Below, piece by piece: positions 6,155 through 25,073 of a DNA stretch of 64,000 bases (its first letter is position 1; every line of letters starts with the position of its first letter). This stretch comes from an uncultured Bacteroidales bacterium (GTDB lineage: Bacteria > Bacteroidota > Bacteroidia > Bacteroidales > UBA10428): positions 42,518 to 106,517 of the forward strand of contig CAVVIO010000023.1 in the NCBI GenBank assembly GCA_963748095.1, given 5' to 3'. Below the pieces are notes generated by a model. That model saw only the letters and a program-made list of their open reading frames with translations. It did no database searches and was not told the DNA's origin. A program made the translations under genes and the position numbers.

Positions 6155-6311
6155 ATTATACACTACTACCTGTCTTCTTTTAATTCTTTATAAACAACAT
6201 TAAATATGGAGTGTATACGTTCAGTGATTGAGTTTTTTGTAACTTTTTGTATAGGTTGTCAAAAAGTTTGTTAAATTTCAGATTCTTGACTTTTATAAAT
6301 AATTGTATTTC

Positions 6312-7617
6312 ATGAAAAAATTAATTCTTTTATCTGCATTATTTTTTATAGGCGCAATTGGCTTTAATAATGGATGGCTCAAAGCTCAGGATGATTGTGC
6401 TACGGAACCTCGTGGCAAAATGATTCCCTGGGAGAAAGGAGCCTGGGTTACGGGGAAATATCGGAATGTATTTCTCGATGCCGGCTATAGCCAGAAAGAT
6501 ATAGATGCAAAACTCGCTAAGGCATATTACGATGTTTTTGAGGGACCCAACAGGGTGTATTTTGAAGTTGGGGATTCAATGGGTTACGTATCCGATTTGA
6601 AAAACCATGATGCCCGGACAGAGGGGCTTTCTTACGGTATGATGGTAGCTGTTCAGCTTAATAAAAAGGAAGTGTTTGACCGCTTATGGCGCTGGACCAA
6701 AAAGAATATGCAACACCAGGGTGGCCCGAGAGATGCTTATTTTGCCTGGAGCGTTAATCCAAAAACATTAAAACATAATTCTGAAGGGTCTGCATCCGAT
6801 GGTGAATTGTATTTTGTTACCGATTTACTGTTTGCCTCCAACCGCTGGGGAAACAATACGGGGATTAATTATTACGCCGAAGCAAGAAGAATTTTGGATG
6901 CCATGTGGTCAAAGAATGGTACCGACGGTGTAATGAATGTGATTAACGTGGAACATAAAATAATTACTTTCACACCAGATAAATTTGGTTATAAATGGAC
7001 TGATCCGTCATACAATTTGGCAGCCTTTTTCGAAATATGGGCAGCGTATGCCAAAGATGGTCAACGAACAATTCTACAGGGATTGTGCTGATTCTGCAAG
7101 AGCCTTGCTTCACAGGGCATGTAATCCTGTTACAGGTTTAAATGCTGATCTTACCGAGTTTAGCGGTGTGCCTCGTTCTTCGCCCTGGATGCCGGCAGCA
7201 TTCCGTTACGATTCATGGAGAGTGCCTATGAATATTGCCATGGATTATTCCTGGTTTGCCAAAGATAAAAAATGGCAACAAACTTATGCAGAACATCTTC
7301 AGGATTTTCTTTACAGTAAAGGAATTGATGATTTTGAAGATCAGTTTAATTTGGATGGTTCAAAACCTGATTTTATTCTTCAGGCTGGAGGCTATAAAAA
7401 ATTGCGTCATTCACTCGGATTGGTTGCAACTTCTGCAGCTGCTTCAATTATGGGAACACAATGCATAAGCTGGAAATTTGTGGATGCTTTGTGGAATGCA
7501 AAACTGGAACCATATTCCGATGGATATTTCGATCCCTATTACGATGGGCTGTTGTATCTTTTCAGTATAATGCACTTAAGTGGGAATTACAGAATAATAA
7601 CTCCGGATTTAAAATAA
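6312..7617 (+). pseudogene. Glycoside hydrolase family 8 (Rex-like exo-oligoxylanase type), interrupted by a +1 frameshift
   Basis: ORFs 6303-7091 and 6985-7617 are the N- and C-terminal halves of one GH8 protein. 'ARTEGLSYGMMVAV' is present, 'ASDGELYFVTDLLFASNRW' is a near match to the GH8 signature, and 'YDSWRVPMNIAMDY' is present. The reading frame changes between '...EIWAAYAKDG' and 'NEQFYRDCADSARALL', at about 7040-7062. Removing 1 nt gives a protein of about 434 aa. Confidence 0.85.
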
Positions 7618-9424: not shown

Positions 9425-9460
9425 ATTTTAGCATGAGTTAGAGTGTGAGTCTTGAGGAAA

Positions 9461-9528
9461 AAAACAGCTTGGAGTTTGAATTTATCGCTCTTGCGCTCTT
9501 GCTCAAAACTCACACTCCAAACTGTTTT
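9461..9528 (-). terminator. Array hairpin 5, directly downstream of tRNA-Arg
   Basis: Arms at 9461-9479 and 9510-9528. The hairpin begins 2 nt after the tRNA discriminator base. Confidence 0.55.
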
Positions 9529-9530
9529 TG

Positions 9531-9603
9531 TGACCCCGGCGGGACTCGAACCCACAACCTTCAGAACCGGAATCTGACATTCTATCCATTGAACTACGGG
9601 GCC
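9531..9603 (-). tRNA. tRNA-Arg (anticodon CCG)
   Basis: The 73-nt reverse complement folds as a cloverleaf. Acceptor stem GGCCCCG/CGGGGUC, D-stem GUUC/GAAU, anticodon stem UCAGA/UCUGA with loop UUCCGGU, T-stem GUGGG/CCCGC with loop UUCGAGU, discriminator A. CCA is not encoded. Confidence 0.9.
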
Positions 9604-9700
9604 GGAAACGGCGTAAAATTAATAAAATTTGTTACGTAACTGCCAATAATTTAAAATTCTTACTATTGCAGTTTGAACTTTATTATTAAACAACTTTTTT

Positions 9701-13702: not shown

Positions 13703-14596
13703 CTAATCCATAAAATGACCACCGGGATAGGTATATCGTTTTACCCTGTAAGTGTTATTGTATTTATCCCAGATTACATTTCCAGTTCCTGATTTTTTCA
13801 CAAATTCAAGTGTCTTTTTATATTCAGGTGTTCCTTTTCTAAGCCATGCTGGAAGTTCTTTATCATCTTTTAAATTAAATTTTTCACGGGTTGAATCAAT
13901 GAGTTCTTCCAGTTCTTCCATGGGAGTTTTGATGCCAAAAAATTCCTTGGTTCTTATAGCAACTGTAACGGATAACGTCATTTCTTTCAACGATTTGGAA
14001 ATTGCCTGCCCGACAAGATCCATTTTGGCTAACCGTTCGATCCTTTCTTTATATTTTTCCTGTTCATCCTTTGTAAAGATAAGGTCGAACATCTCTCCGT
14101 TGTATACCAGGCTTATGATTATAATATCGCGAAAATCGGGAATTTCATCACTGAATATTATCTGCCGTATCCGTTGACGCACTTCGATAATTTCCGTATT
14201 ATCAATAATTGGGTATTTTCTTGTATGAAAGAACCATAGTACTTGTTGATTTTCTATTTTTAAGACACTTTTTCTTATTAGCGAAGTAATAAGGGCATCT
14301 TTTATAATATCGGCTTTGTTACGGATTTCTTTTAACCAATACGAGATTTTATGCTTTTCCCTGCTGTAATTGATATCGTTCAACACCACATCGAGAATAT
14401 AATCATTTGTTAGTTCAGGATTGTCAGGTATTACATTATCCAGATCGGTATCGATCCTGCGATGAAGAGCGAGATCCATCAGGATGGCTCCGGCAAGTAC
14501 CACATCCCATCTTCTGTCAACAAATGACAGTTGTTCTCCTTCTTCATCAAGTGTGAGCAGGTAAATTTCTTCCGGTATTGTTAAAAAGTGTTTCAT
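13703..14596 (-). CDS. GPP34/GOLPH3-family protein with a C-terminal extension of about 75 aa
   Basis: 'IPEEIYLLTLDEEGE...DVVLAGAILMDLALHRRI' and later 'RKYPIIDNTEIIEVRQRIRQ', 'DFRDIIIISLV' follow the GPP34 family pattern. It is the last gene of the partner-switching operon. Confidence 0.65.
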   Translation of the reverse strand: MKHFLTIPEEIYLLTLDEEGEQLSFVDRRWDVVLAGAILMDLALHRRIDTDLDNVIPDNPELTNDYILDVVLNDINYSREKHKISYWLKEIRNKADIIKDALITSLIRKSVLKIENQQVLWFFHTRKYPIIDNTEIIEVRQRIRQIIFSDEIPDFRDIIIISLVYNGEMFDLIFTKDEQEKYKERIERLAKMDLVGQAISKSLKEMTLSVTVAIRTKEFFGIKTPMEELEELIDSTREKFNLKDDKELPAWLRKGTPEYKKTLEFVKKSGTGNVIWDKYNNTYRVKRYTYPGGHFMD

Positions 14597-14621
14597 AACA
14601 GATATTGTAACTTTTTATGGA

Positions 14622-14951
14622 TTAAAAAAATCGAATAGCTTCTTCGGCAGTGTTATAAATATCGAAAAAAGAAGCAAAACCAGCTATATCAAATATTTGT
14701 TTGGTATCTTCAGTTAATCCGGATAATCTTAATTGTCCGTCATTATTTTTCAAGTGCTTCAAGGCCATAAGAAAAACCCTCATGCCTGCACTGCTGATAT
14801 AATTCATTTCACGGCAATCGATAATGATCTTTTTTTCCTTTTCCATCAGATTGATCATACGATCTTCCAGTTCCCTGTAGTTGGTCGTATCGAGCCGGCC
14901 ATGAATTTCCAGGAGCATTACATCATCCTGTTTCTTTTCAACTATATTCAT
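14622..14951 (-). CDS. STAS-domain anti-sigma-factor antagonist (RsbV/SpoIIAA-like)
   Basis: About 110 aa, with 'LLEIHGRLDTTN' and 'MNYISSAGMRVFL' (conserved Ser context). Confidence 0.85.
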   Translation of the reverse strand: MNIVEKKQDDVMLLEIHGRLDTTNYRELEDRMINLMEKEKKIIIDCREMNYISSAGMRVFLMALKHLKNNDGQLRLSGLTEDTKQIFDIAGFASFFDIYNTAEEAIRFF

Positions 14952-14967
14952 ATGAATAGATTTGGTG

Positions 14968-15384
14968 TTAATGAATAGATTTTTTTAAAATTAATATATT
15001 TTTATCATTTTTTCGCTGGTAGTAGATTTCATTCATTACTGATTTTACAATATGAATTCCTATACCCCCCAGATCCCTTTCTTCAAATGGCTTATTTAAT
15101 TTGTTGTTTGTATCTGCGATAAGAGGATTAAAAGCCTTTCCCGGATCAGAAAATTCAATGGTTAATATATTTTTGTCATAAGAAAATAAAATATCAATAA
15201 AATAGTCCTGATCATCTTCGAATGCATAGTTAACAATATTTGAGAAAATCTCTTCCACCGAAAGTAATATTTTATACTGGTGTTGTTGTGGTATCTTCCA
15301 CAACAGGAATAGATTTTCAATTTCTTCGTTCAAATTGAACAATTCCTCAATACTGTTTACTATTTTAACTTGTTTCTTTGTCAT
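14968..15384 (-). CDS. RsbW/SpoIIAB-like serine kinase (HATPase_c_2)
   Basis: N-box-like 'EEIFSNIVNYAF', 'DPGKAFNP' and 'LGGIGIHIV'. About 138 aa. The 5' end overlaps the upstream phosphatase gene by 20 nt. Confidence 0.8.
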   Translation of the reverse strand: MTKKQVKIVNSIEELFNLNEEIENLFLLWKIPQQHQYKILLSVEEIFSNIVNYAFEDDQDYFIDILFSYDKNILTIEFSDPGKAFNPLIADTNNKLNKPFEERDLGGIGIHIVKSVMNEIYYQRKNDKNILILKKSIH

Positions 15385-17296
15385 ATAAACCGCCTGTAAA
15401 TCGTAACATTAAAAATGTAATATCATCTGATTGTTTGGCTTCCTGAACAAAATCTTCCAGGTTAATTTTCAATATATGAACAATTTCATTAAGTTTTAAA
15501 TGATTTTTATTTTTTATAGCCTTTAGCAGGCGTGTCTGGGTGAATTGCTCTTCATTCAGATTTCGTGCTTCGGTAACCCCGTCGGTATATAATAATAACG
15601 TATCATTTTTTTTCAGAAAGACTTTTTCTATCTGATAAATAGTGTCCGTCTTAATTCCAAAAGGCATATTTTTTGGCAACTTGTGAAATTCGAATGATTT
15701 TCCTCCGGTTGAAAATACGGGAGGATTATGACCCGCATCGGATATGTTCAATTCACCGGTAATTATATCAAGTGTGCCGCAAATTGCTGTAACGAACATT
15801 GATTCTTCGTTGTTCAGAGCCAGGTGATTATTAATATTGAACATGATCTGGTCAAGAGGAATTTCCGTTAAGGCTTCTATTTTTAACAGAGTAATTGCAC
15901 GAACCATGAACAGGGAAGCGGGCACCCCTTTACCCGAAACATCACCTATTATAAAAAACAACCGTTCTTTATCGAGGAAATAGTAATCGTAAAAATCTCC
16001 GGCCACTCCATTGGCTGCAGTCAGATTGGAGTATAGTTCAAACTCCTTGTGATCGGGGAAAGGCGGATTTTCATGAGGCAGCATGTTAGCCTGTATATGA
16101 TTGGCAATTTTCAATTCGTTATCCAAGCTGCGTTTATCTTCAAGTGTTTCCTTGAAATTCTTTATATATCTTTTCATGCGTATCTGCATGGCCTGAAAAG
16201 ATTTGGTAATCTGTGCCACTTCGTCTGTTGAGTGGGTAACCGGGAGAGGTGCATTATAATTACCTTTACGGATCAGCCGGCTGGCAGTTGAAAGTTCCAC
16301 TAACGGGCGGGTTATTTTTCTTGATATCATCATAATGATAAACCAGATAATGGTAAATCCTAATAATCCGGAAAACAGGGTAATAAAAAAGATGGTACGT
16401 AATTCTCTTATTGATTGTCTGATTGGAAAAGCTCTGGCCAGATACCACTGATTATTAAATACAGGTGCTATATAAATGCCTTCTTTTTTATTGTATGAGG
16501 TTGGCGGAAAATATTTTTCGTTAGCGGTAATTGCCGGTTTACAATTTATCGTGAGTTTTGGTTTCAGTGAATCCGTTAAATGAAAAACTGCCCGATCGAT
16601 TATTGCATTGCTGTCCGGACTGACCAGTAAATTCCCTTTATCCGAAAGGATAAAACTATATCCTGATGATTGACTTTTTTGCCGTTTTATCAATTTATAA
16701 AGCCAGTCGAGTTCTATGTCTACAGAGACGACACCATTGAAGGTTTTGTGACCATTGTCTATTTTATAAATTGGAACAATATAGGTGCAGGTAATTATTT
16801 TTTTTACTGCATCGGGATGAGGCTCTGTTAAAAACGGTTTCCCGGTTTCCCGGCTTGAATTATACCATTTCTGATGAAAGTAATCTGAATTGCCGGCAAA
16901 TACAAATTTATTCCTGCTGTTCCCATTGAAATATATGTATGAGGAATAAAATAATGAATCTTTGGAATTGGAGTAAGGTTCATAATAAACGCCGCATCCG
17001 GTAATATGAACATTACTGTTCATAAGTGTTTGCTGAATTTTTTGCAGTTCGGATAAATTACAGTTGGATTTTATTAATAAAGCCGAATTTTCCGTAGCAA
17101 TAAAAACTGGTTTGAGTACAGAACGTATCTGCCAGACTGTATTTTCGACATCGAGTCGGATATTACTTTTTGTTTGTTCAAGTAAAACTCTTTTTGATAC
17201 CTGGTAGTAATAAAAGGAAACCACCAAATAAATAACAGACACTCCAGCGAGTAATGAAAAAGTTAACCTGTATGATATTCTGTTCAGTTTTGTCAT
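15365..17296 (-). CDS. Membrane sensor PP2C/SpoIIE phosphatase (extracytoplasmic Cache-like domain, HAMP, PP2C), RsbU-like
   Basis: Two TM helices flank a domain of about 270 aa. HAMP region 'RKITRPLVELSTASRLIRKG...EVAQITKSFQAM'. PP2C motifs 'GDVSGKGVPASLFM' and 'LLLYTDGVTEA'. Confidence 0.85.
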   Translation of the reverse strand: MTKLNRISYRLTFSLLAGVSVIYLVVSFYYYQVSKRVLLEQTKSNIRLDVENTVWQIRSVLKPVFIATENSALLIKSNCNLSELQKIQQTLMNSNVHITGCGVYYEPYSNSKDSLFYSSYIYFNGNSRNKFVFAGNSDYFHQKWYNSSRETGKPFLTEPHPDAVKKIITCTYIVPIYKIDNGHKTFNGVVSVDIELDWLYKLIKRQKSQSSGYSFILSDKGNLLVSPDSNAIIDRAVFHLTDSLKPKLTINCKPAITANEKYFPPTSYNKKEGIYIAPVFNNQWYLARAFPIRQSIRELRTIFFITLFSGLLGFTIIWFIIMMISRKITRPLVELSTASRLIRKGNYNAPLPVTHSTDEVAQITKSFQAMQIRMKRYIKNFKETLEDKRSLDNELKIANHIQANMLPHENPPFPDHKEFELYSNLTAANGVAGDFYDYYFLDKERLFFIIGDVSGKGVPASLFMVRAITLLKIEALTEIPLDQIMFNINNHLALNNEESMFVTAICGTLDIITGELNISDAGHNPPVFSTGGKSFEFHKLPKNMPFGIKTDTIYQIEKVFLKKNDTLLLYTDGVTEARNLNEEQFTQTRLLKAIKNKNHLKLNEIVHILKINLEDFVQEAKQSDDITFLMLRFTGGLYDKETS

Positions 17297-17562
17297 TTTA
17301 TCAGAATCATACCTTAAATATACTAATTATGAATACGAATTTCAATGCAATCATAATATATTACCTTATGATATTAAACCGTTAAAAGTCCAACTGATTA
17401 CCGGATAAAATTTGATTTTGTTAAAATCCTAATAATAAGATTATTGTTAATTAACAGATGACTTTTTATTCGGATTTTCGTCATAATTATAATAATAATG
17501 TATAGTTTTAACTTTTAATCCCAGTTTATTTACCAGAGTGTTTTAATATTAATGTTATACTT

Positions 17563-18192
17563 ATGTCGATCGAAAAAGTTAATGTAGCCAGTAGAAATTT
17601 TCAGGATCTGACTACCATGTTGATAAACTGGCTGGTTGGAATCGGTTGTCTGGGTTTCTACAACAAATTAAATCAACTGGATCATATTTCATTGCAAAAG
17701 TGGGATTGGGCTGTGTTTTTTCTTTTACTCGGAATATCTTTCTTTTCAGGAGGGATAGCTCATTATATATCAGAGAAATGGGATACTTTATTTCATATGG
17801 TAACCTGGGTAATTACAAATACTGCCATTCTTTTTGCCGAATTGGGCTCGATTATTATCGTTAAGTCAGTATTCCTGAAGAATTTTTTTATTGTAAGCGT
17901 AATTATTCAGTTTCTTTTAGTGACCTATCTGGTTTTCAGGCAGAAGAAATTTTCCATTGTTTTGATCAATTCATTGATAGGTTTTCTTTTTCTTTCTTTT
18001 TCCATACATTTTTCTTATTACCTGCATAGTGGATTCGCCGCTAACGGGCTAATAGCAGGAGGGATTATTTTATTGGTGGTTCCTTTTGGTATTTTTCTGA
18101 AAAAAGTCTCTTTTGTCAGGTGGCTTAATTACGTCGATTTTAGTCACTTGCTAATGCTTGGATGTCTGTACCTCATATATCTGGGATGCTAA
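17563..18192 (+). CDS. Polytopic membrane protein, function unknown
   Basis: 209-aa ORF with about 6-7 hydrophobic helices. Divergent from the partner-switching operon. No motif recognised. Confidence 0.5.
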   Translation: MSIEKVNVASRNFQDLTTMLINWLVGIGCLGFYNKLNQLDHISLQKWDWAVFFLLLGISFFSGGIAHYISEKWDTLFHMVTWVITNTAILFAELGSIIIVKSVFLKNFFIVSVIIQFLLVTYLVFRQKKFSIVLINSLIGFLFLSFSIHFSYYLHSGFAANGLIAGGIILLVVPFGIFLKKVSFVRWLNYVDFSHLLMLGCLYLIYLGC

Positions 18193-22108: not shown

Positions 22109-23695
22109 ATGAGTAAAAAGTGGATTTGGATATTAGCATTTTTCATGGGTTTTGCCATGGTCGGTCTTATTATAGTACAGACCTACTGGATAAAAAATGC
22201 TTTTCAGGTAAAGGAAAAACAATTTAATCAGCTCATCAGAAAAAGTATGAGTGAAGTATCATGGGAACTTCAACGTCAGGAAACATATAATTACCTGATG
22301 AAAGAAATAGATAGTGATGGTATTGACTCTATTGCCTCAGGGATCCATGATAGCTACTCCTTTGATACAATCATTAATTATGAATCAGAGAACAGTAACA
22401 TTCCACTTAATATAAAGCAAAACTTTACCTATTCTCAGAATGAACGGGAACAAAAGTTCAGTACTAAAATATCTGTTTCGCGAAATGATACTTCCATGAT
22501 TTCCGGGGAAAACGAAAATTTTTCTCCTGAATACCAGCGTCCCGAAAAAATTAGGGGAAATAAATCCGTTCATCAGAAGGAAATGTTGCAACGTTATAAT
22601 GAACGTCGACAATACCTTGATAAAATGATATCTAACTATATTTTACGGCTTACTCCGGATATTGAAGTGCGTGTTAGCCCCGATACAATGCAAAAGGTTA
22701 TTAAAAGTAAACTGGAAGAAAACGGCATTAATATTAATTTTGAATATGCTGTTACAAAATGGGGTAATGTAATTGCATATCACTCGAAAAATTTTAATGT
22801 AAACAGCGATAATCCATATTATCAGGTACAACTATTTCCCGATGACTATTTTTCAGATAATAATTATCTGACTCTCTATTTCCCTTTTCGTAGGAATTTC
22901 ATAATGAAATCTTTAGGCATTATGGGATTTTCATCAGTTTTATTAACTTTGGTTATTGTACTGGCATTTACGCTTACCATCTTTATCATTTTCAGACAAA
23001 AGAAACTGTCGGAAATAAAGAATGATTTTATTAATAATATGACCCACGAACTGAAAACACCTATCTCGACAATTTCACTGGCTTCCCAGATGCTTGGTGA
23101 TCGTTCCATTCCGGAAACAAGTAAAAATATTCAGCATATTTCGGGGGTTATTTCAGATGAAAGTAAACGATTGGGTTATCAGGTGGAAAAAGTACTGCAA
23201 ATGGCCATTTTCGATAAGGGGAAGCTCAATCTCAAACTGAAAAAAACTGATATACACGAATTACTTGAAAGTGTTATAAATAATTTTTCTATTCCTGTAA
23301 AAGCAAAAGGCGGTTTGATCATCCCTTCGTTACATGCTGAAAACACAATGATTGAAGTGGATGTGGTACATTTTACAAATGTACTGTCGAACCTTATTGA
23401 TAATGCTATAAAATATTGTGCTTCTACACCCGAAATTTATATCGAAACACAGGATGAGGGAAACAGCTTGTGCATTGCCGTGAAGGATAATGGGATTGGT
23501 ATCAGCAAAGAAGATCAAAAACGTATTTTCGAGAAATTTTATCGGGTATCAACCGGCAATTTGCATAATGTGAAAGGATTCGGACTTGGATTGAGTTATG
23601 TAAAGATGATAGTGGAAGATCATAAAGGTTACATAAAACTGGAAAGTGAATTAAACCATGGCACAACATTCAGAATATATTTGCCTAGAATTTAA
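22109..23695 (+). CDS. Two-component sensor histidine kinase
   Basis: N-terminal TM, second TM at about residue 270, H-box 'MTHELKTPISTI', 'DNGIGIS' and 'GFGLGLSYV'. Confidence 0.9.
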   Translation: MSKKWIWILAFFMGFAMVGLIIVQTYWIKNAFQVKEKQFNQLIRKSMSEVSWELQRQETYNYLMKEIDSDGIDSIASGIHDSYSFDTIINYESENSNIPLNIKQNFTYSQNEREQKFSTKISVSRNDTSMISGENENFSPEYQRPEKIRGNKSVHQKEMLQRYNERRQYLDKMISNYILRLTPDIEVRVSPDTMQKVIKSKLEENGININFEYAVTKWGNVIAYHSKNFNVNSDNPYYQVQLFPDDYFSDNNYLTLYFPFRRNFIMKSLGIMGFSSVLLTLVIVLAFTLTIFIIFRQKKLSEIKNDFINNMTHELKTPISTISLASQMLGDRSIPETSKNIQHISGVISDESKRLGYQVEKVLQMAIFDKGKLNLKLKKTDIHELLESVINNFSIPVKAKGGLIIPSLHAENTMIEVDVVHFTNVLSNLIDNAIKYCASTPEIYIETQDEGNSLCIAVKDNGIGISKEDQKRIFEKFYRVSTGNLHNVKGFGLGLSYVKMIVEDHKGYIKLESELNHGTTFRIYLPRI

Positions 23696-23706
23696 AAGCA
23701 TACCTC

Positions 23707-24396
23707 ATGAATAAAAAAATACGTATTTTACTGGCAGAAGATGATGAAAATCTTGGGTCGTTGCTCAAGGAGTATTTAATTGCAAAATCGTATGATACCG
23801 AATGGTTGGTTGATGGAGATAAAGCTTATAAAAGCTTTATCAAAGATCATTATGACCTGTGTATTTTGGATGTGATGATGCCTTTAAAGGACGGATTTAC
23901 GCTGGCACGGGAAATAAGGATGACCAATGCCGAAATACCCATAATTTTCCTTACGGCTAAATCAATGAAAGAAGATGTAATCGAAGGCTTTAAGATGGGG
24001 GCGGATGATTATATTTCAAAACCATTCAGTATGGAGGAGTTATTGTTCCGGATCGAAGCTATATTGAGGCGAACTCAGAAGGACGGGGTTGGTGGCAATC
24101 AGGCTGAGTTTAATATAGGAAAATATAAATTCGATGCTACTAAACAAACATTGTTTCTGGATGATGACTCACAAAAACTGACAACAAAAGAATCGGAATT
24201 ATTACAACTGCTGTGTAATAATAAGAATATAGTTCTCGAACGTAATTTCGCCCTGAAAACAATCTGGATCGATGACAACTACTTTAATGCACGAAGCATG
24301 GATGTTTACATTGCCAAACTTCGTAAATACCTTAAAGACGATCCCTCGGTACAGATAATAAATGTTCATGGGAAAGGTTTTAAACTGATCGGTTAG
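23707..24396 (+). CDS. OmpR-family response regulator
   Basis: Receiver domain 'ILLAEDDENL...DLCILDVMMP...LTAK' plus a winged-helix C-terminus 'MDVYIAKLRKYL'. Confidence 0.9.
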   Translation: MNKKIRILLAEDDENLGSLLKEYLIAKSYDTEWLVDGDKAYKSFIKDHYDLCILDVMMPLKDGFTLAREIRMTNAEIPIIFLTAKSMKEDVIEGFKMGADDYISKPFSMEELLFRIEAILRRTQKDGVGGNQAEFNIGKYKFDATKQTLFLDDDSQKLTTKESELLQLLCNNKNIVLERNFALKTIWIDDNYFNARSMDVYIAKLRKYLKDDPSVQIINVHGKGFKLIG

Positions 24397-24713: not shown

Positions 24714-25073
24714 ATGTTTCATCTTGTAAAAGCCAATAATTCATCTATGATTATTTCAGTGGCAGAAACAAGCCGGTTAAATTTTCTGAATGTTGATGAA
24801 TTAATTAATGATGTAAATTCTCTGATTAACAGTTCCTGCAGAAAAATTTACCTGGATTTAAAGGGAGTATCTTTTATTGATAGTAAAGCATTTGAAAGCC
24901 TGATAAAAATTAATGAACAGTGCTCTCAGTATGCAATAGAGTTCAGGTGCTGCAATGTATCCGATGAATTGCATGAGTTGTTTACATTGGTCAATAATGA
25001 CAATAAAATTAAAACATGTACCCTTGCTGAAATGGATGTACCTACATTAATAGAGGTACAACTTGCTAATTGA
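24714..25073 (+). CDS. Orphan STAS-domain protein
   Basis: 'IYLDLKGVSFIDSKAFESLIKI' is an STAS-like core. No adjacent kinase or phosphatase. Confidence 0.55.
   Translation: MFHLVKANNSSMIISVAETSRLNFLNVDELINDVNSLINSSCRKIYLDLKGVSFIDSKAFESLIKINEQCSQYAIEFRCCNVSDELHELFTLVNNDNKIKTCTLAEMDVPTLIEVQLAN

Follow-up and report, generated by a model that had tools for sequence, protein, structure and literature searches.

A cluster of four minus-strand open reading frames (ORFs) within a 64,000-nucleotide stretch of DNA from an uncultured Bacteroidales bacterium (UBA10428; assembly GCA_963748095.1, contig CAVVIO010000023.1, positions 42,518-106,517 of the forward strand; hereafter the window) encodes a membrane sensor phosphatase, an RsbW/SpoIIAB-type kinase, a single-domain STAS protein and a protein of the GPP34/GOLPH3 fold. 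On balance the cluster probably works as a single serine-phosphorylation switch that follows the logic of SiaABCD and in which the phosphorylation state of the STAS protein controls the GOLPH3-like protein. The likely direct partner of the GPP34 protein is the STAS protein and not the kinase, because the STAS and GPP34 genes are recurrently adjacent, some pairs of them stand without a kinase gene nearby, natural fusions join the two domains, and a survey centred on the kinase found no GPP34. The packing attributed to the cluster in a preliminary description of the window was borne out exactly: the phosphatase and kinase genes overlap by 20 nucleotides, and gaps of 16 and 25 nucleotides separate kinase from STAS and STAS from GPP34, as read directly from the sequence (coordinates in Table 1). 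The same four-gene order, with the same flanks (leuS, M23 peptidase, purN, acpP, fabF, rnc), recurs with protein identities of 58-59% in relatives, the nearest of which are Bacteroidales metagenome-assembled genomes (MAGs).

The forward survey took one genome per GTDB species and covered the best 80 loci with flanks of up to 10 kb; annotation relied on hidden Markov models (HMMs) iterated from the operon's own proteins, with a sample of the labels re-verified with Pfam, and Actinomycetota, in which GPP34 is abundant, were outside the sample. Such a survey had been called for in the preliminary description, and it showed GPP34 paired with STAS far above chance: by the criterion of a single-domain STAS gene no more than 300 bp from the GPP34 gene on the same strand, 36 of the 80 loci held an adjacent pair where 0.3-1.9 would be expected, with a median gap of 38 bp, and further single-domain STAS genes of the same kind numbered only 8 in 1.2 Mb of flanks. 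This adjacency supports the earlier view of the GPP34-like gene as a genuine, conserved part of a cassette of the partner-switch type that has no sigma factor in cis. The pair is found in Bacteroidota, Gammaproteobacteria and Alphaproteobacteria and in both gene orders, PP2C-kinase-STAS-GPP34 (15 loci) and GPP34-STAS followed by other genes (13 loci); whichever the order, the gene touching GPP34 was STAS in 36 of 36 adjacent loci and never the kinase alone.

The architectures encountered were (a) PP2C-kinase-STAS-GPP34, as in the window, with a phosphatase of either dCache/HAMP-PP2C or REC-PP2C type; (b) GPP34-STAS-kinase followed by an NMT1 binding protein, a dCache/HAMP/GAF histidine kinase and a REC-PP2C phosphatase; bare pairs in the order (c) GPP34-STAS in Bacteroidota, (d) STAS-GPP34 in Gammaproteobacteria and (e) STAS-GPP34 in Alphaproteobacteria; (f) ABC-transporter operons in which STAS and HATPase_c_2 lie within larger proteins and GPP34 is an adjacent free gene; and (g) GPP34-NMT1-dCache/HAMP-PP2C in Cloacimonadota and Armatimonadota bins, with kinase-STAS slightly farther away. 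The sensors at linked loci thus vary between dCache/HAMP-PP2C and REC-PP2C fed by a dCache/HAMP/GAF histidine kinase. Fourteen bare STAS-GPP34 pairs have no RsbW-type kinase within 2.5 kb, their neighbours being unrelated housekeeping genes. The labels of MAGs that carry the locus point to relatives of Owenweeksia, Draconibacterium and Roseivirga.

Fusion of proteins that are elsewhere separate is a classical sign of direct functional, and usually physical, partnership. A 5.8-billion-protein collection was searched with an artificial STAS+GPP34 concatenate and then with the natural fusion P0165 (STAS at residues 9-107, a linker of about 35 amino acids, GPP34 at residues 144-341), which yielded at least seven clusters of STAS::GPP34 two-domain proteins with mutual identities of 33-45%; the S-S-x-G acceptor is invariant in all seven. 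Because the clusters are multiple and divergent and one of them has 35 members, the fusion is an established family and not a sequencing artefact. These fusions join GPP34 to STAS, and none was found with the kinase. In one case the fusion gene and a HATPase_c_2 kinase gene downstream of it overlap; in another it shares an operon with genes for a SpoIIE phosphatase, a further STAS protein, and ABC and MFS transporters; in a third it stands alone.

A reverse survey took the best 80 metagenome loci by kinase (30-46% identity; search pattern from 10 kinase sequences). No GPP34 gene was present in any of these 80 kinase-centred cassettes; nearly all had an adjacent STAS gene and many a PP2C gene, sometimes fused to the kinase. 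Sister cassettes with the same skeleton of a 647-648-amino-acid dCache-HAMP-PP2C phosphatase, kinase and STAS carry a class III nucleotidyl cyclase gene after STAS in at least seven loci. Because sister cassettes hold other output proteins at this place, the cassette appears to be generic, with the position next to STAS as a variable output slot. The slot cyclase is a stand-alone protein of about 216 amino acids (PF00211; L089, L090, L092, L105, L112, L132 and L149), small cNMP-binding proteins are encoded upstream of the kinase in L114, L118, L122, L130 and L152, and cNMP-gated ion channels are encoded downstream in sister cassettes, to which L151 and L163 also belong. The cyclase-bearing cassettes look like a partner switch controlling cyclic-nucleotide synthesis; no description of a cyclase-output partner switch with this skeleton was found in the literature searched.

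As judged from the translations, the switch proteins have kept their catalytic and acceptor motifs intact. Alignment of the kinase to RsbW (6m36) and SpoIIAB is collinear, its N-box (E45/N49), G1 (D80) and G2 (G106/G107/G109) residues are invariant among 21 homologues, and its top named NCBIfam matches are RsbW and SpoIIAB, both below threshold. The STAS protein matches SpoIIAA, RsbV and TM1442 in the PDB; it contains the YISSAGM motif pointed out in the preliminary description, within which Ser54 aligns with the phospho-acceptors Ser58 of SpoIIAA and Ser56 of RsbV, and the acceptor motif is kept in 37 of 37 GPP34-adjacent STAS proteins. The phosphatase has a short, basic N-terminal tail, and its dCache sensor is predicted to be periplasmic because two hydrophobic segments bracket it; the sensor region matches dCache_1 (5.6e-13) and MCP-like_PDC_1 (2.5e-14) in Pfam and the ligand-binding domains of PctA and PctB in the PDB. 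The PP2C domain aligns with the phosphatase domains of RssB, Rv1364c and SpoIIE, and the motifs GDFYD, DVSGKG, TDGVTE and DDIT, with the metal-binding aspartates of PP2C enzymes, are present in its translation. The top NCBIfam match of the phosphatase is SiaA, far below the cut-off.

The fourth protein belongs to a Bacteroidota family of about 297 amino acids that is conserved over its whole length. Its Pfam match to GPP34 scores 121 bits against a cut-off of 29.1 and spans the full model (1-201), and a family profile finds GOLPH3 in the PDB at E 4e-15. With an AlphaFold2 model (pLDDT 78.6; 94 homologues in the alignment) as the Foldseek query, GOLPH3 (9qpq_B, 3kn1) and Vps74 were the sole significant matches (probability 1.0, target TM-score 0.66-0.67). 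The C-terminal extension, modelled as helices and a small beta-hairpin, is confined to the approximately 297-amino-acid family: among 1.84 billion representatives it was seen in 17, all of that family, and in no other protein setting, and neither Pfam nor the PDB has a match to the extension alone. The N-terminus of the bacterial protein aligns with GOLPH3 residue 57, and the N-terminal coatomer-binding region is absent. The membrane- or lipid-associated output suggested in the preliminary description gained no support: there is no transmembrane segment (maximum hydropathy 1.29), and we do not claim binding of phosphatidylinositol 4-phosphate (PI4P) or other lipid, three of the four residues that we take to form the PI4P pocket of human GOLPH3 (W81, R90, R171 and R174) being unconserved. 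Among 94 homologues the W81 column varies among K, R and E, R90 is replaced by A or S, the R171 column varies among D, Q and G, and the equivalent of R174, the only basic pocket position retained, is R or K in 74 (79%). Its membership of the fold family is genuine, but it is not a functional copy of GOLPH3.

The proposed mechanism would begin with a periplasmic ligand that binds the dCache domain of the inner-membrane phosphatase and sends a signal through HAMP to the PP2C domain, which would dephosphorylate the STAS protein at Ser54, while the RsbW-type kinase would re-phosphorylate the same residue. In the cytoplasm the GOLPH3-fold protein would have the STAS protein as its direct partner, comparable to a regulatory subunit that can detach, and depending on the phosphorylation state of Ser54, STAS would either bind the GOLPH3-like protein or stay with the kinase. 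The GOLPH3-like protein would be a non-transcriptional output, controlled in trans by the STAS protein of the window, or in cis by the STAS domain where the two are fused. We infer that STAS binds GPP34 physically, that this binding depends on phosphorylation, which phosphorylation state binds, that GPP34 is output rather than input, and how it acts downstream.

Several observations weigh against this reading. ORF calling in the surveys used a simple script, and the loci come mostly from MAG contigs, a number of which are short. The binomial P of the adjacency, between 2e-63 and 4e-37, overstates independence because the loci are related, and about 5-7 independent architectures is a safer measure. 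No STAS gene lies near 23 of 51 long-form GPP34 genes, and these 23 form one derived clade located by cstA, so the function of GPP34 is not always dependent on an adjacent STAS protein, and outside Proteobacteria most short-form GPP34 genes also have no adjacent STAS gene. Nor do the STAS proteins linked to GPP34 form a single clade: in a weakly resolved neighbour-joining tree on 109 columns (all trees were made by neighbour-joining on short alignments) they fall into some six or seven groups mixed with unlinked sequences. One fusion locus (L169:2559-5755) has overlapping genes for an extracytoplasmic function (ECF) sigma factor and a Ser/Thr kinase (Pkinase/TPR, 868 amino acids), 246 bp upstream of the STAS::GPP34 gene and its kinase and on their strand; this is the only case in which a sigma factor might belong to a GPP34 module. 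Finally, genomics alone cannot separate an output role of GPP34 from an input role.

That last point gives room to an alternative that is unlikely yet the best placed of those considered, in which GPP34 is an input, a scaffold or a localisation factor, for example recruiting STAS or kinase-STAS to the membrane or the phosphatase, or reporting the state of membrane or transport, and the true output lies elsewhere. Eukaryotic GOLPH3 and Vps74 are adaptors that recognise, at the membrane, the short tails by which membrane proteins reach into the cytoplasm, and the phosphatase in the window is a membrane protein with a short, basic tail at its N-terminus; ABC_sub_bind, NMT1, CstA, NCS2 and MFS genes recur beside GPP34; and the bare STAS-GPP34 pairs could be sensor and transducer. 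Against this, an input is already supplied by the dCache or REC domains of the phosphatases, here and at many other loci, and in sister cassettes the same slot is filled by an enzyme with an obvious output role, the nucleotidyl cyclase. Recognition of a phosphatase tail by GPP34 would not be general, because many of the linked phosphatases are soluble REC-PP2C proteins.

A kinase that sequesters GPP34 as a surrogate sigma factor, with dephosphorylated STAS freeing GPP34 by taking the kinase, is improbable. It would follow the canonical logic of RsbV-RsbW-sigmaB and SpoIIAA-AB-sigmaF; among the 28 STAS-linked long-form loci, 20 have a kinase as well as GPP34; in L057 the gene directly upstream of GPP34 encodes a permease::HATPase_c_2 fusion; and the kinase gene that overlaps a STAS::GPP34 gene at one fusion locus also favours it. 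The invariable placement of STAS rather than the kinase beside GPP34, the 14 pairs without a nearby kinase, the fusions of GPP34 to STAS only, and the lack of GPP34 near all 80 close kinase homologues argue the other way. In the preliminary description the kinase was supposed to control the GPP34-like protein or be controlled by it; the functional link stands, and the kinase as direct partner gives way to STAS.

No sigma-70-family ORF was found in the window (iterated HMM on all ORFs of at least 50 amino acids, Pfam on mid-size ORFs), in agreement with the earlier statement that no sigma factor gene was recognised among the listed ORFs, and the approximately 2 Mb of surveyed loci (about 165 cassettes) contained 8 such ORFs, none systematically linked. 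An ordinary anti-sigma module with its sigma factor elsewhere in the genome and the GPP34 gene as a co-transcribed passenger is very unlikely: it could draw on the match of STAS to the anti-sigma-factor-antagonist model, the RsbW and SpoIIAB matches of the kinase, the restriction of the sigma search to 64 kb of this genome and the 3-4 loci, out of about 165, that have an ECF sigma gene near the module. It is opposed by the sigma-free window and by the lack of enrichment of sigma genes near the cassettes; Bacteroidota are, moreover, not known to have group 3 sigma factors of SigB/SigF type. It cannot account for STAS-GPP34 adjacency across phyla and gene orders or for the fusions.

Control of the GOLPH3-like protein by the STAS phosphorylation state thus remains the preferred reading. 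The recurrent neighbours of GPP34 (CstA, ABC_sub_bind/BPD_transp_2/ABC_tran, NMT1, NCS2 permease and MFS) invite the speculation that the targets of the GOLPH3-like protein are membrane transport proteins. NMT1 and ABC_sub_bind among these neighbours suggest that the dCache ligand may be a small solute, organic or anionic. A broader proposal, which is attractive but doubtful, is that GOLPH3-fold proteins were ancestrally cytoplasmic adaptors to transporters (CstA, ABC importers, NCS2/MFS) under phospho-STAS control, that eukaryotic GOLPH3/Vps74 descended from such a module, and that the operon in the window is a working example that would convert a periplasmic ligand into transporter activity or localisation post-translationally.

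Table 1. Features of the four-gene cluster and its upstream region, in window coordinates.
Feature	Coordinates	Strand	Details
Membrane sensor phosphatase, 643 amino acids	15365..17296	-	First transmembrane segment (about residues 10-30), periplasmic dCache, second transmembrane segment (about residues 299-325), HAMP, PP2C/SpoIIE
dCache/PDC sensor domain, residues 89-286	16439..17032	-	PF22673, PF02743; predicted periplasmic
HAMP linker domain, residues 324-374	16175..16327	-	PF00672, 9.8e-11
PP2C (SpoIIE-type) catalytic domain, residues 443-633	15398..15970	-	PF07228, 9.8e-48
RsbW/SpoIIAB-type serine kinase, 138 amino acids	14968..15384	-	HATPase_c_2 (PF13581), 1.4e-16; start overlaps phosphatase gene by 20 nucleotides
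Single-domain STAS phosphoprotein, 109 amino acids	14622..14951	-	PF01740, 8.6e-23; TIGR00377 anti-sigma-factor antagonist, above cut-off
Codon of Ser54, predicted phospho-acceptor	14790..14792	-	Motif Y-I-S-S54-A-G; codon read directly
GPP34/GOLPH3-fold protein, 297 amino acids	13703..14596	-	PF05719, 8.7e-35; soluble, no signal peptide or transmembrane segment evident
GPP34 core domain, residues 7-206	13979..14578	-	Acidic, isoelectric point 5.05
C-terminal extension, residues 207-297	13706..13978	-	Lineage-specific; basic, isoelectric point 9.1; conserved motif LPxWLRKGTxQYxKTLEF...GT
AT-rich intergenic region, presumed promoter region	17297..17562	.	Separates operon from divergent DUF6962 gene; from sequence

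A scan found no terminator-like site on the minus strand within the four-gene cluster, and no RNA features lie inside it. The Bacteroidota promoter motif TAnnTTTG has no exact copy in the presumed promoter region, and its count across the window is not above chance; a scan for the sigma-70 consensus promoter is uninformative for a Bacteroidota-like genome. The status of the cluster as an operon is drawn from spacing and conservation only, because the promoter and terminator scans gave no support. Membership in anti-phage defence, considered owing to the STAS-TCAD9 fusions near related loci, was rejected, as none of the four proteins matched a PADLOC defence-system model at E <= 0.01.

The divergent gene upstream encodes a DUF6962 membrane protein (window 17563-18192, plus strand) and is probably unrelated to the operon, because its position is not conserved in the closest relative (L001). 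An orphan second single-domain STAS gene (24714-25073, plus strand; 119 amino acids), the most divergent STAS in the tree, lies just 3' of two genes (22109-23695 and 23707-24396) that encode a histidine kinase and an OmpR-type response regulator, respectively, and is convergent with the gene for an 806-amino-acid MG2/Plug protein; syntenic copies occur in L007 and L008. Two overlapping plus-strand ORFs of 262 and 210 amino acids at 6303-7617 may represent a gene of glycosyl hydrolase family 8 (GH8) that is frameshifted or degraded; the first of them matches only a portion of the GH8 model (positions 48-151 of 341). A 64-amino-acid plus-strand ORF at 9445-9639 is the shadow of a tRNA-Arg(CCG) gene (9530-9603, minus strand).

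The STAS-less GPP34 clade is found downstream of cstA (PF02554), immediately adjacent in 14 cases (L012, L020, L021, L024, L025, L028, L031, L035, L038, L040, L043, L045, L046 and L055), often with a 4-bp gap, and within 6 kb in 6 more. In this clade the hairpin motif LW..R is replaced by FLG, and the two GPP34 paralogues occur together in the same genome in two instances (L022 with L024; L015 with L040). The hairpin L120-W121...R126 had at first seemed to mark STAS-linked GPP34 proteins (Fisher P 9e-5) and was rejected as a marker: it is not discriminating because the family as a whole inherited it and the CstA clade lost it in a single event, and W121 is missing in three STAS-linked GPP34 proteins too. 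In L003 and L034 a 219-amino-acid copy of the GPP34 N-terminal core lies between the kinase and STAS genes (6714-7373 in L003); it is not independent evidence, because it is a near-identical, recent tandem duplicate of its 301-amino-acid neighbour.

Kinase and STAS domains within larger proteins accompany several GPP34 loci. STAS-TCAD9 fusions, TCAD9 being an APH-like kinase domain, directly follow the GPP34-STAS pair at L039:3780-6026 and L042:11277-13262, where the TCAD9 domain may replace the RsbW-type kinase by a non-homologous one. A permease of the xanthine/uracil type with a C-terminal, RsbW-like HATPase_c_2 domain (L057:8130-9863, L060:15584-17290) and a soluble protein of about 410 amino acids with an N-terminal STAS domain and an uncharacterised remainder (L057:5161-6396, L026:3588-4808) are encoded in an ABC_sub_bind/BPD_transp_2/ABC_tran operon beside GPP34. 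HATPase_c_2 proteins extended to about 500 amino acids, each with its own STAS gene (L026:7750-9246, L037:915-2414, L069:5890-7404), are encoded divergently from the GPP34 module or near it, and the one in L026 has a GNAT acetyltransferase domain.

Homologues of GOLPH3/GPP34 are widespread in bacteria, and their pairing and fusion with STAS would place them in cytoplasmic signal transduction. This would be the first functional context for bacterial GOLPH3 homologues, providing a testable partner and a testable residue, Ser54, and it would add a non-enzymatic output to the growing class of non-sigma partner switches. The pairing also bears on the role of RsbW/RsbV-type modules in Bacteroidota, where sigma factors of the SigB/SigF type are not known to us, and on how an adaptor of Golgi trafficking originated among prokaryotes. 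No GPP34-STAS partner switch was found in the literature searched, in line with the earlier suggestion that such an output had not been described. Partner switches that act on targets other than sigma factors have been described before (SiaABCD, HsbA-HsbD, Bgr and All4160), and the novelty is the output protein, not the principle.

Eukaryotic GOLPH3 and Vps74 (PDB 3KN1, 9QPQ and 2ZIH) share the fold and the Pfam family with the protein in the window, whereas sequence identity is only 16-19%, the basic C-terminal extension is specific to Bacteroidota, and bacteria offer no Golgi, COPI or PI4P context. In the only bacterial-GPP34 paper found, from 2025, GPP34 of sponge symbionts is associated with cytochrome P450 and is proposed to be a secreted effector that binds PI4P and is directed at the host; STAS, kinases and phosphatases do not appear in it (PMC11706023). 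GPP34-cytochrome P450 fusions with the same architecture as in those symbionts (PMC11706023) were also seen in Acidobacteria (P0166 and P0167, 668-677 amino acids). The symbiont proteins belong to the same Pfam family, whose short single-domain form is widespread in bacteria, but the contexts surveyed here point to a cytoplasmic signalling role.

In the Bacillus systems RsbU-RsbV-RsbW-sigmaB and SpoIIE-SpoIIAA-SpoIIAB-sigmaF, as in partner-switching generally, the kinase sequesters a sigma factor that is usually encoded in the same operon. The three protein families, the position of the acceptor serine and the ATP-binding motifs of the kinase are the same in the window, but there is no sigma factor in cis, GPP34 lies next to STAS where the Bacillus operons have the sigma gene after the kinase gene, and the phosphatase is predicted to be a periplasmic-sensing membrane protein. 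Closer in outcome are the STAS proteins HsbA of P. aeruginosa (with HsbD) and BgrV of S. meliloti (with BgrR), which control diguanylate cyclases, and All4160 of Anabaena, in which a STAS domain regulates a fused glycosyltransferase under the PP2C phosphatase HenR and RsbW-type kinases (PMC5085249, PMC8457831, PMC13555669). In each the phosphorylation state of STAS acts on an effector other than a sigma factor, and the fusion of STAS to its effector in All4160 parallels STAS::GPP34; their effectors are enzymes of known activity, whereas the candidate effector here has a non-enzymatic adaptor fold.

A close parallel is SiaABCD of P. aeruginosa, with the same four-gene order of HAMP-PP2C membrane phosphatase, small GHKL Ser/Thr kinase, phosphoprotein and effector. 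There it is the phosphoprotein SiaC rather than the kinase that contacts the effector: in its unphosphorylated state SiaC binds SiaD and activates it, phosphorylation blocks binding, and the interaction has been solved crystallographically (PMC8457831). In the window effector binding is deduced from the genes, the phosphatase has a dCache sensor, the phosphoprotein is a canonical STAS protein (PF01740) with a serine acceptor, unlike SiaC (DUF1987, Thr68), and the candidate effector has a GOLPH3 fold (PF05719), unlike the GGDEF diguanylate cyclase of Sia. Because its candidate effector belongs to PF05719 and its phosphoprotein to PF01740, the operon would work like Sia without being an orthologue of it.

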